This document shows positions 1 through 61,582 of a stretch of 64,000 nt of DNA, in pieces. Within the stretch, counting starts at the first letter, position 1; each line of letters begins with the position of its first letter. The translations under genes were made by a program, and so were the position numbers. The DNA comes from Mobula hypostoma (Eukaryota), in assembly GCF_963921235.1 (NCBI RefSeq), contig NC_086108.1, forward strand, positions 7,564,001 through 7,628,000, given 5' to 3'. The notes beneath the pieces were generated by a model. It was not told the origin of the DNA. It did no database searches and was given only the letters and a program-made list of their open reading frames with translations.

Positions 1-232
1 TTACTTCACTCCTCTCCCACTCACCTGGTTTTCCCTGCCACCTTGCACTTCTTCCTCCCCTCCTGCCACCTTCTTACGCTGACTACTGCTCTTCCTTTCC
101 AGCCCGGGAAAAGGATCTTGGCCCAAAACGTTGCCTGTTTAGTTTTTTCCACAGGTGCTGCCTGACCTGCTGAGTTACTCCAGCACTTTGTGTGTGAGTC
201 TTGGACTTCCAGCATCTGCAGATTTTCTTCAG
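1..232 (+). mobile_element. Penelope-like element 3' terminal repeat fragment with degenerate hammerhead motif (100-137)
   Basis: Pyrimidine-rich tract, then 'aaggatcttggcccaaaacgttgcctg...gctgcctgacctgctgagttactccagcactttgtgtg'; the same module follows GIY-YIG frames elsewhere in the window. Confidence 0.75.
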
Positions 233-430
233 CATGTTTGAAAGCTTACCTCCAACACCAGTCTCTGCACTGGACAGAAGATGATCACGAACTCAGGCAT
301 TCTCTTATTAAGAATCCCAAAGGCTGCTTTTGCAAGAAAAATTGTGTTTTTCTTAAAATGGTAATCTAATGATCATCTTCCTGTCATTCCTGACTGGATT
401 TCCAGTCCCTGCTACTGAAAAGCATCCCCC

Positions 431-757
431 GAATCAGAATCAGGTTTATTATCACTGGCATGTGACGTGAAATTTGTTAACTTAGCAGCAGTTCAATGCA
501 ATACATAATCTAGCAGAGAGAAAAAAAATAAAATTAAAAATAATAATAAGTAAACAAGTAAATCAATTACGTATATGGAATAGGTTTTAAAAAGTGCAAA
601 AACAGAAATACTGTATATTAAAAAAAAAGTGAGGTCGTGTCCAAAGCTTCAATGTCCATTTAGGAATCGGAAGGCAGAGGGGAAGAAGCTGTTCCTGAAT
701 CGCTGACTGTGTCCTTAATAATGGACTCTACCTTTCTGAGACACCGCTCCCCAAAGA
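431..757 (-). mobile_element. Rex1/Babar LINE 3' fragment nested in the Tc1
   Basis: (GAATCA)n tail read on + strand, then 'ggcagaggggaagaagctgttcctgaatcg' = antisense of RFRNSFFPSA. Confidence 0.8.
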
Positions 758-1529
758 TAGCATGATGCTACCTCTATCGTACGTTACAGTAAGAATGGTA
801 TTACCTAGATGGTGCAGTATTAGATTTATGTCTAATAAGTTCCACTTTAGTCCCATCTGACCACAAGACGCTCTTCCACATCTTTACGGTATCTTCCAAG
901 AGATGCTTTGCAAAGTCTTTACAGGCAATGATATCCTTTGCTTTTTCCTTGCCACTCTTTCATAAATACCATTTTTGTACAAGGCCTTAGAGATTGTGGA
1001 ACCATGAATTTTATCTCCAGTTGCATCCACTAACTTCTGCAGCTCACCTAGAGTGACTGTTGGCATCACAGTAGCCTGTCGTACAAGTGCCACTCTTCTC
1101 CAGCGACTGAGCGTAAGAGAGGCAGCCTGACCTAGGTAGTGTGGCTGTGGTCCCATATTATTACCACTTTTTCCACTGGACTCTATGCTCAGTGTCTTTG
1201 AGATGGTCTTGTATCTTTCCCCAGAGTTGTGCTTCTCTATTATCATTTTGCTGACTTGTCTTGAATGCTCTTATGTCTTCATTTTCATTTGTTCTGTTGA
1301 AAATCTACTGTGCTGTTGGACATTGCAGAGAGAGGGGATAATTATTCTTATTAGTTCATTGAAAACAGGTGATCCTCCAATTCTCTACATCAACAAATTG
1401 TGTGAGTTGGTAATGTGCAACATTGCAGCTGAGGAAATTTAGCGTAGTATTTACAAGGGGGTAGAAAAATTTGCAGTTTTGGAATTTTTCTTTTTGATTT
1501 GACATGACACACAATGCTTTAGTCATAGG

Positions 1530-2058
1530 CAGTGTGTTTGCTATTTCTCAGCTGCTGTCGGAGGTAGACCGCTTTACTCAAGCAAACCTTCTCTTTCATT
1601 TGACAGAGAGTGAGTGCCTGTTGGTCCTTGAGACAGGGGCCTTGGAGGAGCGACGCAGATTGGAACAACAAGTTGCATGTCTCTGCACTTGTTGCAGGAG
1701 TGACCTCTCTTCCTCGATGGAGAGGGAGACAACCCGTTGAGATCCGGAGTGCTGGCTTGTAGACTGTAGTTTTAATGGACTCTGGATCGGGGTCTCTTTG
1801 GGGGCATTCTGCTGTTGCTGCATGGTGGTGGTGGTTGGTAGGGTGGGTGGGGGGTGTGTGGTCGGTGCTTCTGCTGGTGTGAGTAGGGGTGAGGGTCAAT
1901 GCCTTTACTGTTGCTTGTGCAGAGGAGGGCGGGGTGTTGGGGGTTCGTTGTTTCTATCAATCATTCTATGGGGTTTCTTCTTTCGTAGATGTCTGTGAAA
2001 AGTATGAATTTCAGTTTGTTTATTTATACATTCTCTGATATTAAATGAACCTTTGAGT
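1530..2058 (+). mobile_element. Non-autonomous retroelement-like repeat (related copies near 2370-2770, 6950-7435, 50380-50830)
   Basis: Shared blocks 'gtgctggcttgtagactgtagttttaatggactctggatc' and 3' 'gaatttcagg..tatac....tgatattaaa.gaacc' recur at 2500-2768. Confidence 0.55.
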
Positions 2059-2243
2059 CATAGTAAAGTACAGCACAGAAACAGACCCTTCAGCCCATCT
2101 AGTCTGTGCTGAACCAATTAAACTGCCTACTCCCATCGAGCTACATCAGGACCATAGCCCCTATACTCCTACCGTCCATGTACTGATCCAAATTTCTGTT
2201 CAGTGTTGAAATTGAGCTCGCATGCACACTTGTGCTGGCAGAT
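2058..2243 (-). mobile_element. CR1 LINE 3' end fragment
   Basis: Closely matches 3850-4025, which continues into a CR1 ORF2 frame. Confidence 0.75.
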
Positions 2244-2369
2244 TTGCTAAAAAAATACCTACTTCAATATACTGTATTTTAAATATAGAAAATGAGACAG
2301 TAAAATGTAAAAACGGGAGGCTGAATACTTTTTCAAAGCGCTGTATGTCAGTGATAACAAACCTGTCTA

Positions 2370-2770
2370 TCGAGCAATTCTTCCCCGAGTTGGGGAACCT
2401 GGAGAAGATTGCAACCGGACCCGCGAGGAGCTGGTTTCCACTCTTGTTGCGGTAGGAGCGACCTCTCTCTCCCTCACTGGTGAGAGAGAACTTGACCTAA
2501 GTGCTGGTTTGTGGACTGAAGTTTTTGATGCACTCTAGATCTAGATCTGTTTGAGGAGCTTTTGTTTTTGCTTGCATGGTGGAGAGTCGGTGCCTCTGCT
2601 GGAGCACGTGGGGGGAGGAGAAGGAGAAGGGCTGATGCTGCTGCTTGTGCTTGGGGGGTGGGAGGGGGCTTGGGTCCTGATGTCTCTATCATTCTTTCGT
2701 GGATGCCCGTGAAGAGTTAGAATTTCAGGTGCATGTTGTATACTTCCTTTGATATTAAACTGAACCATCT
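2370..2770 (+). mobile_element. Second copy of the 1530-2058 repeat family
   Basis: Sequence similarity to 1640-2058. Confidence 0.55.
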
Positions 2771-4737: not shown

Positions 4738-6395
4738 ACCAGGTGAGGCAACACTTCACCTGCAAATCTGCTGGGGTCATCTACTGTGTACTGGTGCACC
4801 CGATGCAGCCTCCTCTACATTGGTGAGACCTGTCGTAAACTGGGAGACTGCTTCATCGAACACCTCCACACTATCTGCTCAGTGGCCAAACATTTTAATT
4901 CTGATTCCCATTCCCGTTCCGATGTGTCAGTCCATGGCCTCCTCTTGTCAAGTCAAGTTTATTGTCATTTAATTACACACATCTATATAATGTATATAGA
5001 AACGAGATGTTTCTTTGAACCAGGGTGTAAAGCACAGCAGTACACATAACACTCAATAACTTATGAAGGTATGGATAAAACCTACAGATGAATTACACAT
5101 AATAACAAAATAAAGTGTATTAATTTTAAACATTGGAACGTACAGAATAGATTAACTCGTGACACTTACAAATACAATGCAGCAGGGAGTTCAGAAACCT
5201 AATGGCCTGGAGGAAGAAATTGTTTCTCATCCTGACCGTTCTGGTCTTTCTGCATCGGAGTCTCCTGCCTGATGGTAGAAAGTCAAAGAAGATGCTGGGT
5301 GGATGGGTGGAATCCTTAATAACACTAAGGGCCCTGTGTATGCAGCACTCCTGATAAATGTCCCCGATGGACGGTAGGGAAACCCCTATGTTCCTCTCGG
5401 CCATTCTCACAGGCCTTTGTAGGGACTTCCGGTCTGATGCTTCGGCTGCTCCCAGACCAGATGGAGATGCAACTTGTCAGGACACTCTCAACTGTGCTCC
5501 TGTAAAATGCAGTTAAGATGGAGGAAGGGGTGGGAGCCTTGCTTGCCTCAATCTTCCTAGGAAGTGGATGTGCTGCTGTGCCTTCTTGTTCAGAGAAATG
5601 TTGTCAAGGGACCAGGTGAGATCATCGTGATGTGAACTCCCAGGAACTTGGTGCAATTAACTCTCTCTATGAAGGAGCCGTGTATTCGCGAGGGGGGGGG
5701 GATGTCTGCACCTTCCTGAAGTCCACAACAATTTCCTTTGTCTTCTCTATGTTCAGGCCTGTGTTCTTCTCACACCAATCCACCAGCCGCTCCACTTCCT
5801 CTCCATATTCCATCTTGTCATTAATCTTGATAAGGTCAAACACTGCTGTGTCATCTGCAAACTCGATGACACGGTTTGAGCTGGATCCTGCACGGTTTGA
5901 GTCATGTGTCAGCAGTGTGAGCATGGGGATCACCTGTGCTCAATGTAATGGGACCAGAGACATTGCTGCCCATGTGGACTGACTGTGGCCCTACTTTAAC
6001 AGTATCTAATTGCCAAGATGAGGCCACCCTTTACCTTATATTCTCTCTGGGTAGCCTCCAACCTGATTTTTCCTTCTGGTTAACAAATTCTTCCACCCAC
6101 CTCCTTCCGCAATTCCTCACTCTAACCTTTTACCTCTTCTCACCTCGTGTCCCCTCTTCCTTCCCTTTCTCCTATGGGCCACTCTCCTCCCCTATCAGAT
6201 TCTTTCTTCTCCAGCTCATGACCTTTCCCACCCACCTGACTTCACCTATCACCCAGCTAGCCTCCTCACCAAACTTTTTTATTCTGGCACCTTCCCTTTC
6301 TTTCTCAGTCTTGGCCCAAAATGTTGACTATCTATTCATTTCCATAGATGCTGTCTGACCTGCTGAATTCCTCCAGCATTTTGTGTGTGTTGCAG
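4738..6395 (+). mobile_element. Penelope-like element (GIY-YIG end plus terminal repeat) split by a Rex insertion at about 4950-6000
   Basis: VIYCVLVHP/YWCTRCSLLYIGETCRKLGDCFIEH GIY-YIG motif; 'ccatggcctcctcttg' resumes as 'tgccaagatgaggccacc' at about 6011. Confidence 0.85.
4948..5985 (-). mobile_element. Rex1/Babar LINE fragment (RT C-terminus, TGACT-type tail)
   Basis: ORF 5667-5933 (EFADDTAV...LNIEKTKEIVVDFRK) and ORF 5126-5410 (LPSGRRLRCRKTRTVRMRNNFFLQAIRFLN). Confidence 0.85.
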
Positions 6396-7689
6396 AAGAT
6401 TCCTTATCAGAATCAATCTAGCCAATAGTGGAGAATGCCGAATGGAACAACCGATGCTAATTTTCCAAGCTGTTGATCAAAAGTATGTTTGGGTAAAACT
6501 CTTGATATGTCCCGAAAGAGATTTGACAGGAGAAATGGGATTCTTTCTGACTCATATATTAAGGGCATTTTAAAACATTTTTACAGAGTTGTGTGTGCAT
6601 GGAACACCCTGACAGGGAAATGGCAGACGAAGATACATTAGGGATATTTAAGACACTCTTTGAAAAGGAGATGGCACCAATAAACAATGCTACCAAAGTC
6701 GACATCCTCAAACGGGCCACAAAGCAACTCCTTTCACTTCTTTTACATCTTTTTATGTCAGAAATGACTCTACTAATGTTAGAGCCTACTATCTACTTTG
6801 TGGCGGCATGACTTTGGGCCAATCGGGCAATCTGGCATTCTGCTATCTCCAAGAGTCTTCCACAAGGCTGCAACCAAAGTGTGAAGCCAGGAGACTGTGA
6901 ACCATTCCATCTCTCGCTGATTAAAGCACCGAGGCAGGTTAGAGGCGAGCATGTGTTTAGCAGCATCTACCAGCCTCTCACTTGCTACTGCCAGAGAAGG
7001 AATTTGCCTCTGGTGGACTCTCGCTCGAGTGATCTCTCTTTCACTTGATGCTGTTGGCACATGGTACCGGAGCAAGGTTTAGTCGATGTGGATTGTAGAT
7101 CTGTACTCTGATTGAGGGTTATGGTGTGTTCTAGTTCAGGCTACTCTTTTTTGTTACTACTTTCGGGCAATGTTTGAATCAGGGCGGCCTGCAGATAATA
7201 AACACCACGCTGAACTACACTGAAATATTCCTTTTGATTTTGAGCTTCATATTCCGTGTTTTTTGCTAATTTTTTTGGTTGTTGTCTTTGCATGGGGGGA
7301 GGGGGGTTAATGTTTGATGTTAATGGGGGGCGGGGTTCGTTCCATGATTTTGTTTCGCAGCTGTCAGTGGGGAAGACGAATTTCAGGGTTGCATACTGCA
7401 TACATACTTTGATTACAAATGTGCTCTGAATCTTTGATAGGCATATAGATGATAGAAAAATGGAGGGCTATGTAGGAGGGAAGGGTTACCATCAGGGGTT
7501 CCCATCCTGTATAATGCCATGGACCAATACCATTAAACAAGGGGTTCATGGACCCCAGGGTTAGACTGATTTAAGAGTAGGCTAAAAGGTCAGCACAACA
7601 TCATGGGATGAAGGATCTACACTGTGCTGTGAAGTTCTAAGTTCTATCACTTAGGTAGATGGCACCCAGCAAAAGTTTAAATAGTCTGT

Positions 7690-7845: not shown

Positions 7846-8249
7846 TGTAGTAGTAAAGGTTTAAATAAATTGCTCCTTAAATGGTACATGTTATGGTGTA
7901 CACAAATGAAAGTATGCTGGAGAAAAGAACAGGTAGTTAATGAACTGGAGCTTAAAGTCGATAGTATCCAGTGAATTATATTCCCCGTCTCAGAATAAAT
8001 TGCAATTAAGTCAGAGTCAGTGAGATCTGAGAGAAATATAACTTAACTGTTGTGGAGCCAATTTAAATGCAAAAAATGATGAGTAGGGGAAAAAACAAAT
8101 TACAGAGCAGTAAATTATGGAGAGACAGAGAGAGAGAGAAAATGTTCCCACTTTTAAAAGGTCTGATAACATCTAAATCTGAAAATTAAAACAAACCCAT
8201 AAATGACAACCATATAAACAAGAGATTCTGCAGATGCTGGAAACAGGAG

Positions 8250-8691
8250 ACATCACCATCATTGTTATGTGCTGTGTCATATGACGTGGGTGATCATGGT
8301 CTTCCATCTGTTTTTAATCTGATCCCCTTCACACTGTTATTGTTATTCTTTTTTCTATCCATGACTATGATTGTTCCTGGAAATTTTTTTCTACAGAAGT
8401 GGTTTGCCATTGCCTTCTTCTGGGCAGTGTCTTCACAAGAGGGGTGACCCCAGCCATTATCCATACACTTCAGAGGCTGTCTGCCTGGTGTCAGCAGTTG
8501 CATAACCTGGACTTGTGATGTACATCAGCTGCTCATACGACCATCTGTCACCAGCTCCAGTGACTTCACCTGATCCTGATCAGGAGGTCTAAGCAGGTGC
8601 TACACCTTGCCCAAGGATGAACTGCAGGCTAATGGAGGGAAGAAGCACCTTACACCTCTGTTGGTAGAGACATATCTCCACCCCACCACCC
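8250..8691 (-). mobile_element. RTE-related non-autonomous element (structured head plus BovB/Sauria-like RTE tail) inserted into a Penelope terminal repeat
   Basis: Antisense of 'gaaggcaatggcaaaccacttctgtagaaaaa'; flanked by 'ctggaaa' on both sides; host repeat resumes at 8692. Confidence 0.75.
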
Positions 8692-8944
8692 TGGAAATCC
8701 AGAACAATACACACAAAATGTCGGAGGAGCTCAACAGGTCAGGCAGCATTTATGGAGAGGAATAAACAGTGCTGATGAAGTATCTTTGCCCAAAACATTA
8801 GCTCTTTATTCCTTTTCACAGAGATATCTTAGCAAAGGCAGTTAGACTGAAAAACAGCTTCTTCCTGAGGGCTGTTGTGCAGCTGAATAACGCTACACCC
8901 CGGCTTGCCAGTGGATTAGAATGTTATGGACTATCAAAGTCACA

Positions 8945-10435: not shown

Positions 10436-11647
10436 GATATACATTTATATTGTCAAATGACAAAAAACTTGACTTGGCTTGACTTACACCTCCTTTCCGT
10501 TTGGCAGTATCTCTACCCCACTACCCTGATGGCTTAGATTGGTCTACATTTAAAACTGAGTGGCCAGTAAAATGGAGTGATCACCAAACTGAGGATATGG
10601 AAGTGAGCTCTGGGCAAGATTACAAACCTTATTTGCACGGCGCTACTAAAGTTAAAAAGTATATGAAAAGAAACTTTTGGGATTTTCTAACCTTCAGATA
10701 TTTTTCCAAACATCTACCACGTGTGTTGCACCACTGAGAATTTGTATCTTGCAGTGATTTAGTCTGCGTCTGCCGAACCGCGAAGCAGCGGTTTACACGG
10801 AATGGAAAATTATTTTGCAATGTTTTCAGCAGAATTAGTCCTGTGCCCATTTAGTCTGCAGATTAAGCTGCTCTAAGCTGTCTGAGCTACAGTATTTCTG
10901 AAAACACTGACCTTTACTGACTGCTAAAGTTCACGTGACAGAGAGGCATTCTGTAGAGCTGAAGAGGTTGGTGTTTTTAAAATATAATTTTTAATCCTTG
11001 TAAACAAAAATGGTGAAATACCGCGTCTGGAAAATATACTTCATCATAGACACTTAGCATTTCAGTCTCATCAGCTGCAGGCAAATATTGGCTCATGGCC
11101 AAAGCTAGATTTCTTTGCTTTACCAAATATTTATTGGATTAATAAATTCCATTGAATGAACTTATGCTTAGAAACAGAATATAGGGCAGATATGTTTTTG
11201 AGGCATGTTTATGTTGAGTATCATTCGATCAGTTTACCATTGAATAACTTATCCTGTATGATCTTACATTCAAAAATAGTACAACACTGGGGACCAATAA
11301 AAGACTTTTGTTGGTATTGAACCAGATTTTAAAACTACAACTGACTTGTAATATTTCTGGTATATCCATGATACTTTTGAGTACTGTATGTCCTTTTGAA
11401 AACTGATACCTGTTGACTCTATCTATCATCACAGCCTTTCGAACTGCGCCTTGTAAGGCATGAAAATGCCCGACGCTGGCCTCTCAGGTCTGAGTCGACG
11501 TCATCATCATCATCTATCTATCTATCAAGGTGACTTGATAGAGGTGTACAAGATGATAAGAGGCATAGATAGAGAGGACAGCCAGCGCTTCTTTTAATCA
11601 GGGCGAAAATGGCTAATACAAGAGGGCATAATTTTCAGGTGATTGGT

Positions 11648-12180
11648 CAAGCATCTCCACTCCATTCGCCACAAGAACTTGCTTCTGGCCAAACATTTTA
11701 ATTCCAACTCCCATCCCCGTGGCCACGGGTCCATGGCCTCCTCCTGAGCCAAGAGAGGTCACCTTCAGGGTGAAGAAGCAACACCTTATATTCTGTCTGG
11801 GAAGCCTCAAATCTGATAGCATGAATATCAATTTCTCCTTCTGGTAAAAAAAATCCTCCCTCCCCTCTCCTCTTCCTCTGTTCCACACTCTAGCCTTTCA
11901 CCTTTTCTTACCTGCCTGTTACCTCTCCCTGGGTCCCTTCCTCCTTCCCTATCTCCTATGGTCCACTCTCCTCTCTAGCCCTTTACTTTCCCACCCACCT
12001 GGCTTCACCTATCACTTTCCAGCTAGCCTCCTTCCCATCCTCTTACCTTTTTATTCTGGTGTCTTCCCCTTTCCTTCTCAGTCCAGATGAAGGGTCTCAG
12101 CACAAAACATCGACTGCTTATTCATTTCCATAGATGCTGCCTGACCTGCTGAGTTCCTCCAGCATTTTGCACGTGGTGCT
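11648..12180 (+). mobile_element. Penelope-like element 3' part with hammerhead motif at 12079-12116
   Basis: EHLHSI...AKHFNS..LRVKKQHLIFCLGSL frame, then 'cagtccagatgaagggtctcagcacaaaacatcgactg'. Confidence 0.85.
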
Positions 12181-12194
12181 TTGGTAAACGGTTC

Positions 12195-12648: not shown

Positions 12649-13009
12649 AGTATAGGGGATGTCAGAAGGTTGTTTACACAAAGATTGTTGGGTGCGTGGA
12701 ACATGCTGCCGGGGTGGTGTAGAGGCAGACATATTAAAGACTGTTAAACATAGATGAAAGAAAAATGGAGGGATATGTGGGAGGGAAGCGTTAGATTGAT
12801 CTTACCGTAGGTTAAAGGTCAGCACAGCATCCTTACAGTAGGTTAAAGGTCAGCACAACTTCCTTGGCTGAAGGGGCCTGCGCTGTTGTGTAGTGTTCTG
12901 TGTTCTGTGATGACAGCACATACATGCTTCTTAACAGAGGTGAGTGGCTAGCAGCTACAAGTGCTGAGGTTAACCATCAAGTTGAATACAGATGAATACA
13001 GTTGCCTCA

Positions 13010-14035
13010 CTCACAATACGCTGGAAAAACTCAGCAGGTCGGGCAGCATCAGTGGAAATGATGAGTCGATGTTTTGGGCCAGAACCCCTTATCAGGACTG
13101 AAGAAAGAAGGTGGGGGAGGGTTGGAAGAAGGCTCGTAGTTTCATCTGAAAAACCAGTAATTTGGAAGACAAAGGGGTGGGGGAGGGGAAGCAGGGATGT
13201 CATAGGCAGGAAAACAATGGGTAGTAGAAGGAGGCGGAACCATGAGGGAGGTGATAGGCAGCTGGGGGAGGGGGCAGAGTGACATAGGGATAGGGGAAGG
13301 GAGGGGGAGGGAATTACCGGAAGTTGGAGAATTCTATGTTCATACCAAGGGGCTGGAGACTACCTAGACGGTATATGAGTTCAACTCATATTCCTCCAAC
13401 CTGAGTTTAGCCTCATCATGGCAGTAGAGGAGGTCATGTATGGACATATCTGAATGGGAATAGGAAGCAGAGTTGAAGAGCGTGGCTACCGGGAGATCCT
13501 GCCTGTTGTGGTGGACGGAGTGGACGTGCTCGACGAAGCGGTCCCCCAATCTGCGTCAGGTTTCACCGATGTAGAGGAGGCCGCACCGGGAACACCGGAT
13601 GCAATAGATGACCCCAACAGACTCACAAGTGAAGTGTTGCCTCACCTGGAAGGACTGTTTGAGGCCCTGAATAGTGGCAAGAGAGGAGGTATAGGGACAG
13701 GTGTAGCACTTACACTTACAGGGATAAGTGCCGGGTGGGAGATCTGTGGGGATGGATGTGCGGATAAGGGAGTCGCGGAGGGACCGATCCCTGCGGAAAG
13801 CGGAGAGGGGTGGAGAGTGAAAGATGTGCTTAGTGGTGGGGGTCCTGTTGAAGGTGGCGGAAGTTGCGGAGGATAATGTGCTGGATCCAGAGGCTGGTGG
13901 GGTGGTAGGTAAGGACAAGGACACTCTGTCCCTGTTGTGGTTGCGGGAGGATGGGGTGAGGGCCGAAGTGTGGGAAATGGAGGAGATTCAAATGTCCTCT
14001 TTCTTTAAGGATCGTGGTTTCCTTTCTACCGTCAA
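13010..14035 (-). mobile_element. Penelope-like retroelement, well-preserved 3' half (GIY-YIG endonuclease, terminal repeat, hammerhead motif 13063-13100) with small 5' inversion
   Basis: ORFs 13556-13924 and 13364-13549: AFRRDRSLRDSL...PGTYPCKCKCYTC...FTCESVGVIYCIRCSRCGLLYIGET*RRLGDRFVEH. Confidence 0.9.
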
Positions 14036-14205: not shown

Positions 14206-14912
14206 GACATCCCACCCTGCAAAAACTCATTTCAAGGAAGTAGCACCATCAATTTGCAGGAGACTTCCGGGAGAGGTGGGATGTCTGCGATAGAGTAGCT
14301 CCTTAGCAGCTGGCCAGCTAGTTTAAATAATGTTAGCTATGCTAATGAACGAATGGCACCTGTTAAACTCACCTCACCATGTCTTTTACAGTCTTTACCC
14401 ACCATGGGCAATAGAAAAGTCACTGTTGCAAACAGTGCAGCGAGCAACACTGTCATTATTTTTGATCCCTATTAGGCAGGGGTACACTTTAGGGTAGTCT
14501 GGGGTGAGGTACGTTTTATATTTTCATTTTTTGGAACACTCCCCCACGGCGTGCTCTCGCTCGCTCTCTCGTGGTTGCTCGCGCTCTCTCTCGCTCTTTC
14601 TCTCTCGTTCATGCACTCTCACTTGCTCTCTCTCGCTCGCTTGCTTGCTCTTGCACTCTCTCCCTCTCTCTCCCTCCTTCTCTCTCGTGGTCGCTCTCAC
14701 GCTTTCTCTCTCGTGGTCGCTCTCTCGCTCGCTCTCTCCCTCCTTCTCTCTCGCTCTCTCTCGTGGTCGCTCTCGTGCTTTCTCTCGCGTGCTCTCTCGC
14801 TCGCTCTCAAAAAAATTGATTTCCGTGACATTATATATAATTTGCGGGCATCCAGGGAGCCACTATTAATATGCGGGAGACTCCAGAAGTTCTGGGAAAG
14901 GTGGGATGTCTG
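14206..14912. mobile_element. hAT-like MITE with internal CT-rich microsatellite
   Basis: Inverted termini gacatcccacc (14206) and ggtgggatgtc(tg) (about 14900-14912); subterminal 'cgggagactcc...gggagaggtgggatgtctg' repeated internally near 14255-14287. Superfamily assignment is inferred. Confidence 0.65.
14552..14808 (+). repeat. Compound (CT)n/(CTCG)n low-complexity tract
   Basis: Direct reading: ctctcgctcgctctctcgtggt... units. Confidence 0.95.
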
Positions 14913-15926: not shown

Positions 15927-16467
15927 TCTGAATTTTGGAATGGTACTAGCATGGACAGAAGATTGAATGACTGGCAGGAGGGAAAGAGTGCCTTTTGTAG
16001 TTGGGTGCTTGTGACTTGCAGTGCTCCAAGGGCCTGTACTCCCTGGAGTTTAGAAAAATGCAGGTTGGCGGGGGGGGGGAGTTCTCTTTGAAACCTGGTG
16101 AATATCAAAAGACCTAGACAGAGTGGATGCAGAGAGGATGTTTCCAATATGGGCGATTTGAGGACCAGAGGGCTCAGCCCATCCCTTTCAAACAGAGCGG
16201 AACTAATTCTGCTCCTATCTCTTATGGAATAAACTATCGGTTTCAAAAAGGAAAAAGTTTTAAGGGAAATTTTATCGACTCTGGGTAAAAGTGGGGAGAA
16301 AGAGAGAGTAGAATATTTAATAACAATTAAATATTCAGAAAGACAGCTCTTTTAAGAAAACGGCATCGATAGGAATCAGCAGGCTCTCAGCTGAACAAAG
16401 TCTACCCAATCTTTATCCAATGTTCATGAATTTGTACCACCAAGGAACATGATTAAATCTTAAACAT

Positions 16468-16878
16468 GTGAAAATCTGTAAATGCTGGAAATCCAGAGCA
16501 ACACACACAAAATGTTGGAGGAACTCAGGAGGTCAGGCAGCATCTATGGAATGAATAAATTGTCCACGTTCCGGGCTGGGACTCTTCATCAGGACTGAAA
16601 TGGGGGAAGACACCAGAATAAAAAGGTGTGGGAGGTAGAAGGGGACCAGCTAGAAGGTGACAGGTGAAGTCAGGTGGGTGGGAAGGGTAAAGGGTTTGAG
16701 AAGATAGGAGAGGAAAATGGATCATCAGAAAAATGGAAGGAGGAGGGGCACCAGGGTGAGGTGATTGGCAGGTGAGGAGAAGAGGTAAGAGGCCAGAGTG
16801 AGGAATAGATGAAAAGGGGAGGGGATGGGGAAAAACTATTTTTTATTGGAAGGAGAAGTCTATCTTAACGCCATCATT
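16468..16878 (-). mobile_element. Penelope-like terminal repeat with hammerhead motif 16561-16597
   Basis: Reverse complement reads cagtcCTGATGAagagtcccagcccGGAACgtggac. Confidence 0.8.
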
Positions 16879-23732: not shown

Positions 23733-24620
23733 AATTGAATTAAATTGAATTGACTTTATTTCTTACATCCTTCACATACATGGGTAAAAAATGAACATCT
23801 GAATGTGCAACGTGCAATTTATAGTAACTTGTAATAAATAGTATGTACAACAGGATAGTCAATTAACATATAGTATTAGTGAGAATTAATCAGTCTAATG
23901 AGCTGGTGGAAGAAACTGTCCCGGAGCCTGATGGTCCTGGCTTTTATGTTGCAGTATCATTTCCCAGATGGTAGCAGCTGGAATAGATTGTGGTTGGGGT
24001 GACTTGGGTGCCCAATGATCCTTAGGGCCCTTTTTAGACATCCGTGTTTGTAAATGTCCTGAATAGTGGGAAGTTCACTTCTACAGATGTGCTGGGCTGT
24101 CCGCACCACTCTCTGCAGAGTCCTGCGATTGAGTGAAGTACAGTTCCCATACCAGGCAGTGATGCAGCCAGTCAGGCTCTCAATTGTGCCCCTGTAGGAA
24201 GTCCTTCGGATTTGGGGACCCATATCAAACTTCTTCAACTGCCTGAGGTGAAAGAGGCGCTGTTGTGTCTTTTTCACCACACAGCTGGTGTGTACAGAGC
24301 ACGTGAGATCCTCGATGATATGTATGCTGAAGAACTTAAAGCTGTTCACCCTCTCAACTGCAGATCAATTGATGTCAATAGGGGTGAGCCTGTCTCCATT
24401 CCTCCTGTAGTCCACAAACAGCTCCTTTGTTTTTGCAACATTGAGGGAGAGGTTGTTTTCTTGACACCACTGTGTCAGGGTGATGACTTCTTCTCTGTAG
24501 GCTGCCTCATTATTATTTGAGATGATGCCAATCAATGTAGCATTGTCAGCAAATTTCATTAGTAGATTGGAGCTGTGGGTGGCGACACAGTCATAGGTAT
24601 ACAGACAGCAACGAAGGGGG
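23733..24620 (-). mobile_element. Rex1/Babar LINE fragment (second subfamily, (TCAAT)n tail)
   Basis: ORFs 24365-24559 (KFADNATLIG...LNVAKTKELFVDYRR) and 23957-24349 (QRLFHLRQLKKF...TGCITAWYGNC). Confidence 0.9.
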
Positions 24621-25249: not shown

Positions 25250-25557
25250 TAGCCCATTCTCGTTCTGACATGTCAGTCTATGGTCCCCTCGTGTTAAGAT
25301 GAGGCCACCCTCAGGGTGGAGGAGCAACACCTTATATTTCTGTCTGGGTAGCCTCCACCTGATGGCATGAATATCGATTTCTCCTTCCGGTAAAAAAAAT
25401 CCCCTCCCCACCCCTCCTCTATTCCCCACTCTGACCTTTTACCTAGTCTCACCTGCTTATCAACCTACCCCTGGGTCCTCTTCTCCTGCCCCTTCTCCTG
25501 TAGTCCACTCTCCTCTCCTATCAGATTCCTTCCTCTCCAGCCCTTGACATTTCCCAC
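25250..25557 (+). mobile_element. Penelope-like 3' fragment
   Basis: DEATLRVEEQHL.F.LGSL.PDGMNIDFS motif and the pyrimidine-rich tract. Confidence 0.8.
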
Positions 25558-37326: not shown

Positions 37327-37671
37327 CCCCAGACTCATCCACACTTGGGGCAATCTACGTTGGCCAATTAACCTCACAATTCATACACATCTTTGAGATG
37401 TGTGGGCAAAGGAGGAGCCTCAGAAAAACCCACAATGGTCAGTGGAGCTATGAGACAACAGCTCTATTAGCTACACCTCTCAGTGCTCTCAGAGAAGCAC
37501 ACACTAAATCCTGAAGAAACTCTGGTGTGAGGCAAATGGAGGGAATAATGTTTAATCAGGTGATCCAAAATTTCAACTATTTCCCTCCATAGATGCTGCC
37601 TGACCCGCTGAGCTCCTCCAGCATTTTGTGTGTGTTGCTCTGCAGAATCTTTTGTGACTGTGCCTAGGAAT

Positions 37672-41272: not shown

Positions 41273-41274
41273 AC

Positions 41275-44062: not shown

Positions 44063-44934
44063 GGAAGGGTCTTGGCCTGAAATGTTGACTGTACTCTTTT
44101 CCAAAGATGCTGCCTGGCCTGCTGAGTTCCACCAGCATTTTGTGTGTGTTCCTTGGATTTCTAGCACCTGCAGATTTTTTCTTGTCAGCCACGATAAAAT
44201 GGCAGAGTAGATGTGACGGGCCAAATGGCCTAATTCTGCTTCTGTTTCTTTTGGTCTTATTGGAGGGCATGTCCTGGGTGGTCAGGCCCTTAATGATGGA
44301 CACCACCTTCCTGGGGCACTGTAGCTTGGTTACTACAGAGGCTAGTACCCATGATGGAACCACTACGCCACTGTGGCATAGATTATCATTTCATGCCAGC
44401 ACCAATCATCGCTCCTGAAGAAACAGAGGCACCAAAGCAGAGGACTGGCACCGTTCCCACATCTTGCCCAAATGTCTTACAGTCAGCTCACTCTGCCTGG
44501 AATATCATAGCCCAAATAGTGGTGTTGATAACAGCCAGCAATGTACCCTCAGGTTCCTGCTGATGCAGCAGGAGACTGGGCTGAGGATTCACACATACAC
44601 TGCTCTCTGTCAGTGAGGTGGAGGAGGGCACACTATATTGTACTTTGAAAAGCAATAGCAGTTTGGAGTAATGGGTGCTTTCTGTCAAATGTGGTGACAC
44701 CACTGTAATTGTCTGCCACGCAGCTGCCTCTATCCAGTAACCCTTGTCATTCTTCTCCTCAGTATCCTAAAACAGATCTATGTTGGCTAGTTTACAGCAG
44801 GAATTTTCATCTTTTGCACTCGGTGGTTCCTTTATTAGGGACACCTGCATGTGACCCTTTATTGTAAAAGGATTTAAGTACAAACATTTTATATGGGACT
44901 TGGATCTTCTCATCTTAAAAACAAGGATATATCT

Positions 44935-49924: not shown

Positions 49925-50135
49925 ATGGCTCACAGTGTTGTACTGCCAACTGAGTCAAGAGTTGTAGATTTGAGATCTATTCCAGAGTCTTCAAGGTGTA
50001 ACCAAGGTCAACCTCAAATGACAATATTGAGGATCGTTTCATTGCTGGAGTTTTTGAAATGTAGATGAAGTACTGAACCATTCCAGGTGATGACAGACGA
50101 TGTGACCTCTATTCAGAACAGCAGACCAATTCTCC
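49925..50135 (+). mobile_element. Highly decayed SacSINE1-like (Deu-SINE) relic
   Basis: 'ctgagtcaagagttgtagatttgag..tattccagag...tgagg...gatgaagtactgaacc' has the same order as 34480-34620. Confidence 0.4.
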
Positions 50136-51274
50136 AGAGCAACACACACAAAATGCTGGAGGAACTCAGCAGGTCAGGCAGCAACTATGGAAGGGAATAA
50201 GCCGAGACCCTTCATCAAGACAAAGTACAATGAGAAGAATTCTATCCAATGTAGATGATAATTTTCTGCTGCTACATGTATTTGTTGCTTTCTTTTCCGC
50301 ACACATAGTTACTACCGTTTTTGTATATTGACTGCAATGTGCCTGCAGTATTGGACTGTGAAAGAATTTAAAAGATTCAAAGTACATTTATTAGTACTAG
50401 GTATGCAGAATACAACCCTGAGATTCATCTTCCTCCAGTCAGCCAAGAAACAAGGAACCATGGGGTCTGTTCAAAGAAAAAAAAACTCACCATGCTAAAA
50501 CAAAATTGTGCAAACGGTAACAAAAAAACGATCAAAAACATAGAATATAAAACACAAAATCAAAAGGCATATTTCAGCTAAGTGTTCGTTATCTGCAGGC
50601 CATCTCAATTCAAAAACAACCCAAAAAATAGCAACAAAATAAGGAGCGTCCAGAAGGTTGAACATATCATACACATGAAGTAGAGTCCACAATCCACAAA
50701 CCACGTCGATTAAACCTTGTTCTAGCACTTTCCTCCGACAGCAGCGAGGGAGAGACCATCGCACACGGACACCCTCCTACGGCAGCAGTGAGTGAGAGGC
50801 TGGTAGACGGTGCTGAAAACTCGTTTGCCCCTGCATCCGCCTTGATGTTTTCAATCGGTGAGATTGACGAGAGGTGGAGTCAATCATGGCGGTAGTGTCC
50901 GTCTCCGTCTCCATGCTTCCTGGCCACCAGGCCTCACGCTTTGCTCGCAGCCTCATGGAACCCCCTCAGACACGGCCAAGTGCCAGATCACCCAATCAGT
51001 CGAAAACACACCACCAGAATGTAGATTACAGGCTCTTGCAAACAAAAGCCATTAATCTTTCTAATTTTTTCCACGGAAGGGAGGAGGCACCATCATTTCC
51101 AAAATCCTCTGCAGCTTGACTTCAGTCAGGGCCTACTTATAGCCAGACTATGGAGGGTACACAAATGAATGAAAGCTCGTGAATTTGATTTGCTGACCAC
51201 CTAACTGCCACACACTTTCTGAAAATTAGGATCCAGGAAAGAGCTGAAAGACAATGCTTGGTCTATAAACAAAT

Positions 51275-52542
51275 GAGAAAATCTGCAGATGCTGGAAATT
51301 TAAGCAACACACACATACAAGATACTGAAGAAATTCAGAAGGTCAGGCGACATTTATGGAAAAAAAAGTACAGTCAACGTTTTGGGCCGAGACCCTTCGG
51401 CAGGACTGGAGAAAAAAAGATGAGGATTTAAAAGTTGGGGGGAGGGAAGAGAGAAACACAAGGTGATAGATGAAAATGGGAGGGGCAAGGATGAAGCAAA
51501 GAGCTGGGAAGCTGATTGGTGAAAGAGACATGGGGCTGGAGAAGGGGGGAGTCTGATAGGAGAGACCATCAATGCTGCCCTCAACCACAACTCTTCCATT
51601 TCACACACGTCCGCTCTTACCCACTCTCCCATCACCTTACCAAGGGTAGGGTTCATCCTGTCTTCAACTATCTCCCCTGCAACCTCTGTGCCCAGCACAT
51701 AATTCTCCAATGGGATCTCACCACCAAGCACATCTCTCCTCACCTCCTTTCTGTTTTCTGCAGGGATTGCTCCCTATTGGACTCCCTTGTCCATTCATCC
51801 CGCCCCACTGATCTCCCTCTTGGCACTTACCCTTGCAAGTGGAACAAGTACTACACCTCCTCACTTGCTACCATTCAGGGCCCCAAGTAGTTCTTCTAGG
51901 CGAGGTGACACTACACCTATGAGTCTGTTTGGTCATATACTGTGTCCAGTGTTCTTGTATGTATATCAGTGAGACCTGCCTGCCAGGAGAAGCAAGCTTG
52001 CCCATGAACCACTCATCTTAATTCCACTTCCCATTCCGATATGTCAATCCATGGTCCTCTACTGTCGCGATGAGGCCACAGTCAAGTTGGAGGAACAACA
52101 CCTTATATTCTTGGGTAGGCTCTAACATGATGGCATGAATACTGATTTCTCAAACTTCCCGTAATGCACGCCTCACCCCCCCTCACCTCTCACCATTCTC
52201 CATCCCCCTTTCCCTCTCTCAAATTATCTCCTTGTCTCCCTCTGGTGCTCCTCCCCCCATTTCTTTCTTCCATGGCCTTCTGTCCTCTCCTTTCAGACAC
52301 CCTTCCAGCCCTGTATCCCTTTCAATTAACTTGCCAGCTCTTTACTTCATCCCTTCCCCCTCTCAGTTTCAACTATTAACTTGTGTTTCTCTCTCCCCTT
52401 CCCCCACCTTTTAAATCTACTCCTCATCTTTTTTTCTCCAGTCCTGTTGAAGGGTTTTGGCCCAAAACGTCGATTGTACTTTTTCCCACAGATGCTGCCT
52501 GGCCTGCTGAGCTCCTCCAGCAATGTGTGTGTGTTGCTTGGT
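51275..52542 (+). mobile_element. Penelope-like element with inverted terminal repeat at its 5' side
   Basis: 51275-51566 is antisense terminal repeat; 51566-52542 is sense (TINAALN..SS..FCRDCSLLDSLVHSS.PTDLPLGTYPC, GIY-YIG remnant, terminal repeat). Confidence 0.88.
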
Positions 52543-52689
52543 CTATGAACAAAGGAAATGCTGCTAAATATGAAAGTCTGCTATGACTGTAAATAATCAT
52601 GTAATTAAATTAATAATTCGAAGTCACAAAATTAGACGTCAGCCTTACAAGATGTGTCGATAAGCACAGCATGTTCTCAGTAACTTAGA

Positions 52690-53297: not shown

Positions 53298-53574
53298 TAC
53301 TGCGCAGCAGAATATCTCACTAAACATTTGGTGAATTAGAATATCCTCAAATCAGGGAGTACAAAATATGCGTAGAAGCTATTGTATGTTCTGCAATATG
53401 AGAGGCCATGCAAAAGACTGCAGTTGCTGAAATCTGGAGCAAAAAGGCAGCTGCTTTTAAAGTTGCAAACCTTCTGCTTCCAACAGGGTAAGCAGTGTTG
53501 GTGGAGACGGAAGGGAGGCGTCAACGATTCATGTTGGACAGGGAAACCAGAGGTCCCTGAGCCAGTCCTCATCA

Positions 53575-54378: not shown

Positions 54379-55420
54379 CACTCAGTGGCCACTTTATTAG
54401 GTACAACCTCTTGTTAATGCAAATATCTAATCAGCTGATCATGTGACAGCAACTCAATGCATAAAAGCATGCAGACCTGGTCAAGAGGTTCAGTTGTTGT
54501 TCAGACCAAACATCAGAATGGGGAAGAAATGTGATCTAAGTGACTTTGACCATGGAATAACTCGGTGCCAGATGGGGTGGTTTGAGTATCTCAGAAATGC
54601 TGATCTCCTGGGATTTTCATGCTCAACAGTCTCTAGTTTTACAGAGAATGGTACAAAACAAAAACAGGGAAAAAACATGTCCAGTGAGCGGCAGTTCTGT
54701 GGGTGAAAACACCTTGTTTATGAGAGGTTAGAGGAGAACGGTCAGATTGGTTCAAGCTGACAGGAAGGTGACAATAACAGTGCAGAAGAGAATCTCTGAA
54801 TGCACAATATGTCGAACCTTGAAGTGGATGGGCTACTTCAAGAAGACGACTACAAACTTGTGCCAAGATGAGGCCACCTTCAGGATGGAGGAGCAATACG
54901 TTATATTCTTTCTGGGTAGGCTCCAACCTGAAGGCATGAATATGATTTTTCCTTCTGATAAACAAAGAACCCCCCCCACTGCCCCGCAACCTTTACTCTA
55001 TTCCCCACTCTGACTTTTTACCTCTTCTCACTTGCCTATTACATCCTCCTTGGCTCCTCTCCTTCTTCCCTTTCTCCTATAGTCCACTCTCCTCTCCTAT
55101 CAGATTCCTCCTTCTCTAGTCCTTGACCTTTTCCACCCACCTGACTTCACCTATCACCTCCCAGCTAACCTCAGTCCCCTCTTCCCAGCTTTTTATTCCG
55201 GTATCTTCCCCCTTTCTTCTCAGTCTTAGAGTACGGTCTTGACCCGAAATGCCGATTGTTTATTCATTTCTATAGATGCTGTCTGACCTGCTGAGTTCCT
55301 CTAGCATTTTTTGTGTGTGTTGCTTTATATTTCCAGCATCTGCAGACATTCTAGAGTTTATACATTCAGTGGACATTTATTATTAGATACAGGAGGCACC
55401 TAGCAATGTGGCCATTACTT
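54379..55420 (+). mobile_element. Internally deleted Tc1-like transposon with a Penelope fragment (54857-55358) inserted
   Basis: Left end cactcagtggccactttattaggta; MGKKCDLSDFDHG...ADLLGFS..TVS..; RLVQADRKVT..ISECTICRTLKWMGY; degenerate inverted end near 55398-55418. Confidence 0.85.
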
Positions 55421-58211: not shown

Positions 58212-58260
58212 AGGCTGTACACATCAGCCTTGAGGCTGCACACATCAGCCTTGAGGCTGC
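58212..58260. repeat. 21-bp tandem repeat (2.3 units), each unit self-complementary
   Basis: aggctg-tacacat-cagcct-tg / aggctg-cacacat-cagcct-tg / aggctgc. Confidence 0.9.
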
Positions 58261-59297
58261 GAGCTGCAACACCCACGGCTTTTTCCACAGGACAGCTTGC
58301 AAACAAGTGTTGCTACTTCATCATTATTGACCTGATACTGTTAATGACAGGGCTGCTGGTGTCTGCATCTCTGCCCTCAGCCCGGCACCGTCAACAACGG
58401 GTCCGCTGCTGTCTGCACTGCTGGCATTGACCAGGTATTGTTAATGACAAGGCTGCTGCTTTAGTGCCTTCAGATCATCTGAGTTGACAAAAAAAAAGTG
58501 AACTAAAGAGGCTCATTTATTGTTAAAGTTTATACAACAATGTTATCTTGACCGTCTGTCACATAAAACTCCAATAGTTTTGGATATCCAAAGACTACAC
58601 AATGGAATATGTTCGAGATTTATCCTCTACCTTCTATCAAGTTCAAGTTTATTATCCTTCAACCATACACATATATACAGCTAAACGAAACACTCTTCCT
58701 CAGGGGCCAAGGAGTCAACAGTCACACACAGCACATATAGCCATACACAGCAGTTACAATACAGCACAAATAATTCAGATTAAGCACAATACAGTTACAA
58801 AATAAAATTGACACAAGTCCCTGAGTAGCATAGGATTTTGTCCTGGAGCCACTGGACCACAGTATTAATGGAAGAGCCGACCTGTACAGAGGTTAGAATT
58901 TTAACCTACATGGAATTCAGCGTGCTCTCTCACACCGCTTCCAGTGCCCTTTCTCCTGGATGCTGTCACAGGCAACACCACGATATGTAAGCCTGAAAGA
59001 TCTGGTCACAAACCCACAAACTACTAATTAATACAACTACTTATTCATCTTGAATCTCAGGAAAGTCACAATAAAGCTACTTAAAACACAAAAAGATCAG
59101 TTTAAAAAAAAAACCTGCAATTTTAAAGTACTTTTCATTATTAACACTCAAGAAGTTTCTTCTCCATCCCTTTCCAGTCTGGACTAAGGGTCCCGGCCAG
59201 AAACATCGACTGTTTCTTTCCTTCTAGAGAAACAGCCTCCTCAGCTTTTCCAGCACTGTTGTGTGTGTTGTTCTTCTCCTACCCACAACAGGACAAC

Positions 59298-59620
59298 AAG
59301 CTTGTCTTGGTTTGGAGGCTTGTGTGCCTCAATGACCCAGAGATCTATGTTGGCTGGAGTCAGGGTTTTATACTATGTCTCTGTTTAGGGTCACCTATGT
59401 CAAGCAGGTCAAAGGTAAGACCAGACTCAGAGTGATCCACGAATCCTCCAGATTCGGGGGTTCAGCTCAGGGCTAACAAATCAGGCTGGTAAAACAAAGC
59501 TGGTACGGAAACAACAGTGAAGAATTTTTCTACATCTGAGTGGCCAAGGACAGATAGAGATGGAGGACTTCATTGCTGCTCCAAACGCCAGTGGCGTAGT
59601 GGGTAGTAAGTTAGTAAGCT
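59298..59620 (+). mobile_element. Bipartite non-autonomous RTE element (5' UTR fused to 3' end, (TAAG)n tail)
   Basis: 'ggaggcttgtgtgcctcaatgaccc...tagggtcacc...gggctaacaa' joined to 'gccaaggacaga...gatggaggacttcattgctgc...gtaagttagtaag'. Confidence 0.7.
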
Positions 59621-59703
59621 CCTCTCCTAAAAAACAATGTGCCTTGACTGCTCTCCATGTGAGCTCGACTGCTGGGTCTGGAGGCAAATCAATTACGACA
59701 CGT

Positions 59704-59739
59704 GTCCTGACGAAGGGTCTCAGCCTGAAACGTCGACTG
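59704..59739 (+). ncRNA. Minimal hammerhead ribozyme motif, core intact; predicted cleavage after GTC at 59734
   Basis: gtc CTGACGA A gggt-ctca-gcct GAAA C GTC gactg, at the start of a Penelope terminal repeat (59704-59835). Confidence 0.7.
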
Positions 59740-60149
59740 TACCTCTTCCTAGAGATGCTGCCTGGCCTGCTGCATGCACCAGCAACCTTGATGTGTGTTG
59801 CTTGAACTTCCAGCATCTGCAGAAATCCTCGTGTTTAGGTGTCATAACAAGCCTTTTTCCTGTCATCACGTCAGGAACTTTCAGAGGCCACTTGGAAAAG
59901 AATCAGTATTTGCTGAGCTGGTTCAGTCCATGCCAGGAGTCAACTCCACAAATTCCTGCTCTTTGCGGCTAACACTTCAATGGGTTCACATACTGAAAAA
60001 AAGTACAAAATAAATCATTGGCATCTCAGGGGTCCACATCCATAGATCCCCAAAGACGTTGTGCAAGTTGATCGAGGTTCAAAATTCAAGTTCAAAGTAC
60101 ATTTATTATCAAAGCATGAATGAATTATACAACCTTGAGATTAGTCTGT

Positions 60150-60362
60150 CCGGCATCAGTGGTCGCATAACCAGGACTTGTGAAGTTCACCAGTTGCTCA
60201 TACAACCATCCATCACCTGATCCCATGACTTCACGTAACCCTTATCGGGGGGGGGGGGAGGGAGGAGCTAAACAGGTGCTACACCTTGTCTAACAGTAAC
60301 CTGCAGGTTAGCGGAGGGAAGGAGATGTCCTTTGGTAGAGATGTATCTCCACCCTCCCACCC
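60150..60362 (-). mobile_element. RTE-related non-autonomous element, 5' part
   Basis: Antisense of the 57043 head (ggtagagatgtatctccacc). Confidence 0.7.
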
Positions 60363-61477
60363 ATATAATTTTATGAGGATAGACTGAGTGTATTTTTTCT
60401 TTGGAGAAAAGGAGGATGAGAGGTGACTTGATAGAGGTATACAAAACGATAAGAGGCATTAATTGAGTGGACAGCCAGAGACTTTTTCCAGGGTGGAAAT
60501 GGCTAATATGAGGGAACATGATTTTAAGGTGATTGAAGGAAGGTATAAATGGGGACGTTAAAGGAAAGTTTTTATTTTTACACAGAGTAGCAGGTGTGTG
60601 GAACATGCTGCCAGGGGGAGTGGTTGAGGCAGATAGATTAGAGAGATTTATGCGACTCTTCGACTGTACATAGGTAATAGAAAAATGAAGAACTACATGG
60701 GAGGGAAGATTTAGATCGATCTTAGAGAAGGTTAAAAGGTCAGCACAGCATTGTGTGCCGAAGGGCCTGTATCCACAGAGATCTTTGCTCTAAGTTTTAA
60801 TCATCAATTTCTTAAATTGCAGTCACAGAAACCTAACCCTCAGCATTCACACCAACCCTTGAAAGAAGCTACAGGCTGTGCCTATGCTCAGCTTTCTAAG
60901 CGAGTGTTGTGTAGTGGCCTCTGCATAGCACAGAGCAGGCTATCAGTGCAGGTTTTGTCTATATGGCTTGGCCCAAAGCCATTAGTCCTGCTTTGGTCCA
61001 TATCACGACACACAGGGTCTTTCAACAGTCTGTCCATCTGGTCTTTTGTGTGACAATCCCGTGTCCTTGCTCCTGGCTGGTTCTCTGCCTCACATGTCTG
61101 GGCAAGAACGCCTGTGACAGATTGTCGAGGCTGAGGCATTGTTACATTTCTTTATTCCACTGGGTGCTGGCGACAAGGCGACTCGGAGAAACCTAGAATC
61201 CCAATGGATGACACAGTGCTCTTTGTGCTCTAGAGACACCCACACACACACGCCCAAGATCGATATACTTGATATATTTAAAGCACTTAAAGCTCTTACA
61301 GTTTGGATCAGATTAAAACTGCTTGACAATGACTGAGAGGGACTTGTTATTTTAAGTGTTGTCAATCAGCTTGGCTCACAATGCACTCTTTGCTTCAAAG
61401 AAAAATGGTTTCAAAATTCTCTGCCACGTTTTAACTACATGATCTACAATAACAGTAAGATGTATTATTGACAGAAA

Positions 61478-61582
61478 GCCACACACACACAAAATGCAGG
61501 AGGAACTCAGCAGGTCAGGCAGCATCTGTGGAAATGAATAAACAGTTGATGTTCTGGGCCAAGGTCCTTCTTCAGGACAGAA
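61478..61582 (-). mobile_element. Penelope terminal repeat with degenerate hammerhead 61543-61580
   Basis: Reverse complement ctgtcCTGAAGAaggaccttggcccAGAACATCaactg. Confidence 0.75.

Follow-up and report, generated by a model that had tools for sequence, protein, structure and literature searches.

Minimal type-I hammerhead ribozyme pattern in decayed terminal repeats of a Penelope-like element in the ray Mobula hypostoma

A stretch of 64 kb from contig NC_086108.1 of the ray Mobula hypostoma (assembly GCF_963921235.1, positions 7,564,001 to 7,628,000; the whole stretch is called the window hereafter) carries many dispersed copies of a motif of 38 nt. It is very probable that this motif represents the minimal type-I hammerhead ribozyme pattern of the 3' pseudo-long terminal repeat (pLTR) of a Penelope-like retroelement, likely of the Neptune clade, which would cut the RNA of its source elements as a dimer or with the help of a protein, and that the copies in the window are truncated, CpG-decayed and likely inactive remnants. 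This kind of motif has been known since 2014, and what is added here is its ray member.

The motif and its carrier element

All 13 motif sites listed in a preliminary description of this DNA hold homologous sequence, on the plus strand (starting at 100, 8767, 12079, 26080, 52439, 55221, 59175 and 59702) as well as on the minus strand (13063-13100, 16560-16597, 28218-28255, 51371-51408 and 61543-61580), and so do all four partial sites that it named (6308, 35000, 44063 and 50200). Absent from its list were copies at 8691-8770(-), 28268-28395(+), 28396-28493(+) and 37565-37647(+), and fragments at 8219-8243 and 26262-26293. A longer profile, made from 16 pieces of the window, produced 26 rows at E≤1. 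One of these, 53412-53441 (E 0.91), was discarded. After merging, the 25 retained rows stand for 23 copies or fragments, which occupy about 19 loci and make up about 6.4 kb (10%) of the window. The recurrence of the motif is not due to chance. The reversed window gave no match at E≤10 to a profile of 11 listed copies, and a degenerate 38-nt pattern, which was derived from the same copies, matched six times as compared to never in 100 shuffles. A strict search for the two hammerhead boxes recovered the motif only at 59707(+) and 28250(-), i.e. in two of 11 rows, the other nine being unrelated.

Judged from its sequence, the carrier is a Penelope-like element of the endonuclease-containing type (EN+), with a GIY-YIG endonuclease located C-terminal to the reverse transcriptase (RT). 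The frame at 13559-13840(-) has 19 protein relatives among 50 candidates, and the best five of the 19 are proteins of Hypanus sabinus and M. hypostoma with 73–82% identity. RT thumb, linker and GIY-YIG domain follow each other at 13317-13987(-) and 51565-52200(+); in the protein relatives P0002, P0003 and P0006, RT motifs lie upstream in the same frame. A CX2-5CXXC linker combined with a CCHH signature is present in the frame 13556-13987, in the frame after its stop, and in the relatives P0001-P0003. Such a layout of linker and GIY-YIG domain marks Neptune or Nematis elements (PMC8557442). The clade is likely Neptune; Nematis has the same linker. Among sampled vertebrates, Neptune and Poseidon were found and Nematis was not (preprint 10.64898/2026.07.22.740005).

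The complete order of the module is RT thumb, zinc linker, GIY-YIG domain, pyrimidine-rich untranslated region (UTR), motif, pLTR end and an optional tail, and the 23 copies and fragments display a common 3' end with nested 5' truncations. In the longest copy (13005-13990, minus strand), the reading frame is broken across 13317-13987. The claim that the motif always follows GIY-YIG frames proved too broad: tblastn detects endonuclease DNA in the same sense upstream of only five of the 13 listed copies (12079, 13100, 26080, 52439 and 55221), and the remainder are truncated forms of this module. Endonuclease DNA also precedes the partial copy at 6308, which brings the number to six. Pfam gave no match on three endonuclease fragments. 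Three ray gene models (P0003, P0004 and P0006, by name kinase-domain, mucin or chitinase-domain isoforms) consist mostly of Penelope-like open reading frame (ORF), and the C-terminal eight residues of P0006 are similar to a translation of the hammerhead region at 59720-59750.

The best preserved arrangement is the composite insertion at 51255-52553, which comprises an inverted pLTR with tail, a truncated body, a direct pLTR without tail, and a 19-bp target-site duplication that scores 15, while none of 300 random pairs exceeded 8. This fits the "typical Penelope structure" of earlier reports (PMC3846280; PMC8557442). The other 13 of the 14 loci scanned lack a comparable duplication (scores 3–6, within the random range). 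Two copies were split by later insertions (4953-6007 and 25556-25992) and are therefore old. The insertion at 4953-6007 has a short tandem-like end at its start and a frame resembling the other long interspersed nuclear element (LINE) remnants of the window.

Architecture of the motif

The majority sequence of the copies has a 5-bp stem I, both conserved boxes, one additional A in front of a stem II of 4 bp, a 4-nt palindrome and a GUC triplet. The hammerhead anatomy that had been described thus holds for the majority sequence, and single copies rarely have it: the CUGANGA and GAAA boxes with an NUH triplet are present at the level of the family, and intact in two of the 13 listed copies. The earlier assignment to the minimal type-I hammerheads of Penelope-like terminal repeats agrees with what was published (PMC4209133). 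The ray motif carries every feature given there, namely a short helix I, one additional base between positions 9 and 10.1, pairing of G10.1 with C11.1, and a palindrome at 15.2-16.2. When the copies are aligned to this structure, which was derived from them, 82% of the helix cells are paired, as compared to 17–46% when the helices are slid.

Covariation in stems I and II had been proposed as a check. It does not occur among the 13 window copies, in which none of nine pairs changes on both sides, as is expected if the copies have been decaying from few sources. A scan of metagenome contigs with the core pattern gave at least 127 matches at at least 123 loci, of which at least 84 were distinct and at least 83 had enough flank. 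Stem I, which lies outside the search pattern, has a mean length of 3.28 bp in the 83 distinct motifs listed, against 1.56 bp with shuffled partners (maximum 2.0 in 1000). Position 17 is C in 50, T in 30, G in two and A in one of these motifs, so that 81 of 83 have a base other than G. The inner pair of stem II holds in 30 of the 40 distinct loops listed (shuffle mean 19.5, maximum 27 of 2000). A protein of the ray type is matched at 29 of the 123 loci listed, in 25 cases upstream in the same sense, and blastn of the ray module gave no match among these 123 loci.

Decay of the core

All 11 invariant core bases are kept in just two of the 13 listed copies, 28255(-) and 59702(+). Both carry C11.1>T, and their stem I is only 4 or 3 bp long. 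G12 is replaced by A in eight of the 13. It had also been proposed to check whether the boxes are better conserved than their flanks in young copies. They are no better kept: with the CpG site left out, core identity is 113/130 and flank identity 502/578 (both 0.869, Fisher p 1.0), the corresponding values over 19 aligned copies are 140/160 and 773/866, and the copies are old (8–29% from the majority sequence), not young. TG and CA products occur at all four CpG sites of the motif. The loss of G12 in most copies can be attributed to the CpG that spans C11.1-G12; in 17 copies this dinucleotide reads CA ten times, TG four times, CG twice and AG once. G12 is the general base. A guanine is given as the base in PMC6765202, where work on G8 and G12 is cited.

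The free core position N7 behaves differently in that it is T in seven, A in five, C in three and G in one of 16 window copies. This spread has a probability of 5e-5 under a single ancestral base kept at 87%, a value to be read with the reservation that CpG decay could link C and T. In the contig comparison described below, N7 is the only core position besides G12 with a variant at 10% or more. These observations are suggestive of selection that kept the core in the source elements and not in the inserted copies.

Proposed mechanism and points against it

In the mechanism that we favour, full-length source RNAs would be cut by the hammerhead as a dimer or with protein help, and two 4-nt palindromes would pair for self-cleavage, as the literature proposes. 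The source RNAs would be copied by endonuclease-primed reverse transcription that starts within the tail region. For the anole element, reverse transcription was reported to start inside the RNA at both tail ends, downstream of the hammerhead, and 5'-shortened templates gave shorter products (PMC11167929). A start inside the upstream pLTR of a normal transcript would be expected to yield solo pLTR ends that stop near the motif. Copying that began in the upstream pLTR would run off at a nearby 5' end, being the transcription start or the cleavage site, or may alternatively stall at the structured motif, and either event would explain why most products are short. Selection would maintain the core only in the source lineage.

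Several observations weigh against this interpretation. An Rfam scan of the window at E≤1 found no hammerhead family. No copy folds better than its shuffles as a single strand (z +0.06 to -0.72, seven of seven), and in two-strand folding the double-hammerhead fold lies 8–24 kcal/mol above the best fold for four of four copies, by energies that ignore the tertiary core. The pairing among the window copies is equalled in 265 of 500 shuffles. The metagenome covariation comes from other families, with relatedness uncontrolled and cores fixed by the search pattern. Furthermore, tblastn on the window detected only thumb, linker and endonuclease pieces and no RT core, and a full-length element was not found in the window, where the source element is therefore unseen. 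The account given above of the many 5' ends close to the motif (see below) is itself an inference. In the best fold computed for two strands of the 28255 copy, a second palindrome of six bases (positions 15.1 to 1.3), which spans the cleavage site, pairs one strand with the other; it could compete with the active fold.

Alternative explanations

A function of the fold other than cleavage, such as a protein-binding or splicing-linked pLTR structure kept in the source elements, is unlikely, though the least so of the alternatives. Mutants of the anole hammerhead left insertion in vitro unaffected, and none of the RNA-seq reads had its end at this site (PMC11167929); minimal hammerheads are poor cleavers (PMC4209133); the dimer fold is not favoured in any of the four copies mentioned; and stem I looks like a splice acceptor, as its 5' arm comes after a pyrimidine tract and, in 10 of 16 copies compared, has YAG as its first three bases. 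What speaks for cleavage is the avoidance of G at position 17 in the listed metagenome motifs, the variation of N7 alone among source types, as expected of a catalytic core, and the finding that the anole motif does cleave in the presence of protein (PMC11167929).

The ORF ends on GT in five of six copies, and candidate intron spans are 13100-13325(-), 11840-12082(+) and 52160-52442(+); splicing would shorten stem I. The gene model P0003 diverges from the element at the ORF end of the candidate intron. A Drosophila virilis element has an intron ending at helix I (PMC4209133). Among the C-termini of the 19 relatives, none showed the ORF end spliced to stem I.

The preliminary description had further suggested that a short non-autonomous element amplifies independently. 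Such an element, a solo pLTR or a monomeric retrozyme-like unit that is transcribed by itself and relies on the Penelope-like protein for copying in trans, would be attractive in view of the distribution of 5' ends. Taken as profile boundaries, these lie between -885 and +36 with respect to stem I, and 12 of 21 fall within -30 to +40 as compared to two within -400 to -31 (rate ratio 14.7, p 1.7e-5, with bins set post hoc, the 3' fragments at +67 and +109 left out and the copy at 100 censored). Short copies are also over-represented relative to a smooth truncation curve. The excess looks real, even though five of the 12 near-motif ends come from two composite loci and a variable UTR could shift boundaries. 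In addition, mobilisation in rotifers requires nothing but pLTRs in cis (PMC3846280), and retrozymes were proposed to be pLTR-derived and found in one chondrichthyan (preprint 10.64898/2026.07.22.740005).

Nevertheless, we regard a separate short element as improbable. The near-motif ends do not share one site but occupy a range of 63 nt (-27 to +36), and five of the 12 lie inside or behind the motif. A tree of 20 module copies (108 columns) has no well-supported branch; on this weak tree the short copies require six label changes against a shuffled mean of 6.9, and forcing them together costs 15 lnL units (p-AU 0.08). Their divergence covers the same range as that of the long copies. The sole tandem of the module in the window (28313-28498) is without a complete hammerhead, so that the two or more consecutive units with complete hammerheads by which retrozymes are recognized (PMC7229834; preprint 10.64898/2026.07.22.740005) do not occur there. 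The suggestion of independent amplification thus lacks support, given the scatter of the 5' ends, the absence of a resolved clade and a sole tandem without the hammerhead. In the source-element mechanism favoured above, the 3' ends, which form two groups (+94 to +115 and +126 to +135), fit two start sites of reverse transcription.

It was also proposed that the genome carries an enormous load of ribozyme motifs. To estimate abundance, contig pieces of four runs were aligned to a reference stretch of 311 bases (25940-26250) at 80% likeness or more. Run X1 contributed 163,708 pieces and run X5 143,864 (84% of that run), numbers of pieces and not of copies. Runs X7 and X10, contigs guessed to be from RNA, gave 4,720 and 10,877 pieces, which show neither transcription, strand nor ends. 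Position 12 is G in 29% (X1) and 24% (X5) of the depth, values biased towards the A that the reference copy itself carries there; contig depth does not equal copy number. Loose contig ends were rejected as 5' truncation points: the loose letters continue the motif, and the ends are alignment breaks at the reference's own changes. Of the proposed load, the great abundance of the module is upheld, and the motif copies are mostly decayed. As far as the sequence can tell, the dispersed motifs are likely a fossil load instead of a load of active ribozymes, with inactive copies in the window.

That the dispersed copies act as host ribozymes which cut read-through transcripts and form a genome-wide regulatory load is hardly credible. 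Their density (23 copies or fragments per 64 kb, and some 1e5 contig pieces genome-wide) is the attraction of this idea, which fails on the cores, of which only two of 13 are intact, neither with sound stems, and which decay as their flanks do; moreover, the nearest full motifs on the same strand are 527 bases apart, and one of these is broken. Equally hard to believe is that the likeness to a hammerhead is a chance pattern in an ordinary repeat, as the missing Rfam match, folding signal and window covariation might suggest, since this is largely refuted by the metagenome loci listed, in which unrelated families carry this core, with stems that vary yet pair, at the corresponding position behind the endonuclease, and by the point-by-point match to the published descriptor (PMC4209133).

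Inversion joints

At 8691-8822 two head-to-head copies have stem I in common, and the minus-strand copy starts at +34, directly behind the predicted cut. A joint at equivalent places (26085/26118) was found in three contigs of X1 and four of X5, among the 15 of 309 joints listed. Other strand-change joints are equally or better supported, such as 26163/26202 (13 and 11 contigs). The joint at stem I may therefore be due to plain microhomology. For the copy at 44063-44183, insertion into a LINE-like repeat, at its 3' end and with an apparent 4-bp duplication, gives a well-defined 5' end inside the first box. At 28161-28493 an inverted copy stands beside two tandem 96-base units; comparable go-back joints occur among the contigs, one of them at high depth in run X7.

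It can be envisaged, tentatively and with the odds against it, that the hammerhead acts in vivo during retrotransposition and leaves a footprint in DNA, with cleavage at the triplet setting 5' ends in many templates and the arms of stem I steering a head-to-head template switch, for which 8691-8822 and the matching joint in the contigs of X1 and X5 would be examples. If this were true, some 1e5 insertions would make ray genomes a fossil record that settles the role of Penelope hammerheads.

Features of the window

The coordinates of the copies are collected in Table 1. About 45% of the window consists of sequence that recurs elsewhere in it. Remnants of non-LTR retrotransposons (matches to the Pfam families RVT_1 and ALKBH8_N) occur at 30668-31648, 41226-41693, 62571-62942 and 23957-24364, a Tc1/mariner-type transposase remnant at 884-1270(-) (HTH_Tnp_Tc3_2, HTH_SB), and a long degenerate CT-rich tandem array at 14554-14808. 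A weak Rfam match to mir-146 at 34309-34376(-), with 26.4 bits against a gathering score of 50, is probably due to chance. Pfam identified no host exons among 148 non-repeated open frames of at least 62 amino acids, a search that short exons would escape.

Table 1 Copies and fragments of the Penelope-like module, and target-site duplications, in the window
Positions	Strand	Feature
15-230	+	3' UTR remnant, pLTR end and tail; motif 100-137, four core bases changed; probably runs off window start
4738-4952	+	GIY-YIG fragment of the copy ending at 6401; separated by later insertion 4953-6007
6008-6401	+	Endonuclease end, 3' UTR, pLTR end; first hammerhead box deleted
8691-8770	-	Short copy starting at 3' arm of stem I, just behind predicted cleavage site; head-to-head with 8767-8822
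8767-8822	+	Short copy starting at 5' arm of stem I, arm common with inverted 8691-8770; G12>A
11640-12184	+	5'-truncated copy: endonuclease C-terminus, 3' UTR, motif 12079-12116 (U4>A, G12>A); no tail
13005-13990	-	Longest copy: RT thumb, CX2-5CXXC linker, GIY-YIG with CCHH, 3' UTR, motif 13063-13100 (G8>A, G12>A)
16465-16830	-	3' UTR, motif 16560-16597 (A13>G, G at position 17), tail
25252-25555	+	Endonuclease end and 3' UTR of the copy at 26 kb; separated by later insertion 25556-25992
25993-26210	+	3' UTR, motif 26080-26117 (G12>A), tail; within reference stretch for contig comparison
28161-28255	-	Short copy; motif 28218-28255, core intact, stems weakened
28268-28493	+	Two tandem units of pLTR end and tail (period 96) beside inverted copy; hammerhead partly deleted in first, absent in second
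34999-35114	+	Short copy starting inside stem II; tail
37565-37647	+	Short degenerate copy starting at second box
44063-44183	+	Short copy starting inside first box, with tail; in LINE 3' end, apparent 4-bp duplication
50133-50237	-	Short copy, second box deleted
51255-51273	+	Left target-site duplication of composite insertion, 19 bp, one mismatch
51275-51564	-	Inverted pLTR with tail of ~30 nt; motif 51371-51408 (stems intact, A6>C, G12>A)
51571-52539	+	5'-truncated body (thumb, linker, GIY-YIG, broken), 3' UTR, motif 52439-52476 (A6>T, G12>A); no tail
52535-52553	+	Right target-site duplication; ~5 bases overlap with element end
54855-55357	+	Endonuclease end, 3' UTR, motif 55221-55258 (five core bases changed), tail
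59155-59271	+	Short degenerate copy; motif 59175-59212 (three core bases changed)
59701-59834	+	Short copy, probably of another subfamily; motif 59702-59739, core intact, 3-bp stem I; tail
61476-61608	-	Short copy; motif 61543-61580 (G12>A, A13>G); no tail

Comparison with known systems

Minimal hammerheads in the pLTRs of metazoan Penelope-like elements, among them Neptune elements of fishes, were described by Cervera and de la Pena (2014; PMC4209133), and the ray motif shares with them the type-I layout, a helix I of 4–5 bp, the absence of a helix III loop, the occurrence as mostly single dispersed copies tied to truncated elements, and opposite-strand pairs. No chondrichthyans are listed in supplement file 2 of that paper, the one file searched. 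An earlier report specific to rays or sharks was not found in a search that covered neither most subscription papers nor Repbase, which is weak evidence of novelty. With the present motif, rays join the vertebrates with Penelope minimal hammerheads. Descriptor counts in that work were about 4,000 for coelacanth and about 9,000 for Xenopus; the abundance in the ray, measured at the level of homology, looks far higher but concerns mostly decayed copies. Counts of motif-like repeats greatly overstate the number of active ribozymes, as most copies have lost G12 at its CpG. Mutation at the RNA level was floated there as a source of variability, whereas CpG decay and neutral drift suffice for the ray copies.

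The likeness to Neptune elements (Craig et al. 2021; PMC8557442) includes the C-terminal GIY-YIG domain with CCHH, the CX2-5CXXC linker, the pLTR hammerhead, and an inverted 5'-truncated copy with a tail of 30–40 bp on one end; the difference is that the window holds 3' remnants only. The Poseidon element PAc of Anolis (Frangieh et al. 2024; PMC11167929) also has its pLTR hammerhead upstream of the tail, and the two ends of that tail mark alternative insertion ends, in the same way as the ray 3' ends form two groups. PAc differs from the ray element in belonging to the Poseidon clade and in lacking the linker finger; its ORF starts inside the hammerhead. Non-LTR retrozymes (Cervera and de la Pena 2020, PMC7229834; Li et al. 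2026, preprint) resemble the ray copies in their type-I hammerhead and pLTR-related sequence, but they are tandem units that each contain a hammerhead and give circular RNAs, whereas the ray copies are single or inverted, with one tandem that lacks the motif.

The role of Penelope hammerheads was called unclear (PMC8557442), and in the anole element self-cleavage is weak in vitro, protein-assisted and dispensable for insertion in vitro (PMC11167929). The very large ray family lends itself to a computational test for a concentration of insertion 5' ends and of inversion joints at the cleavage site.

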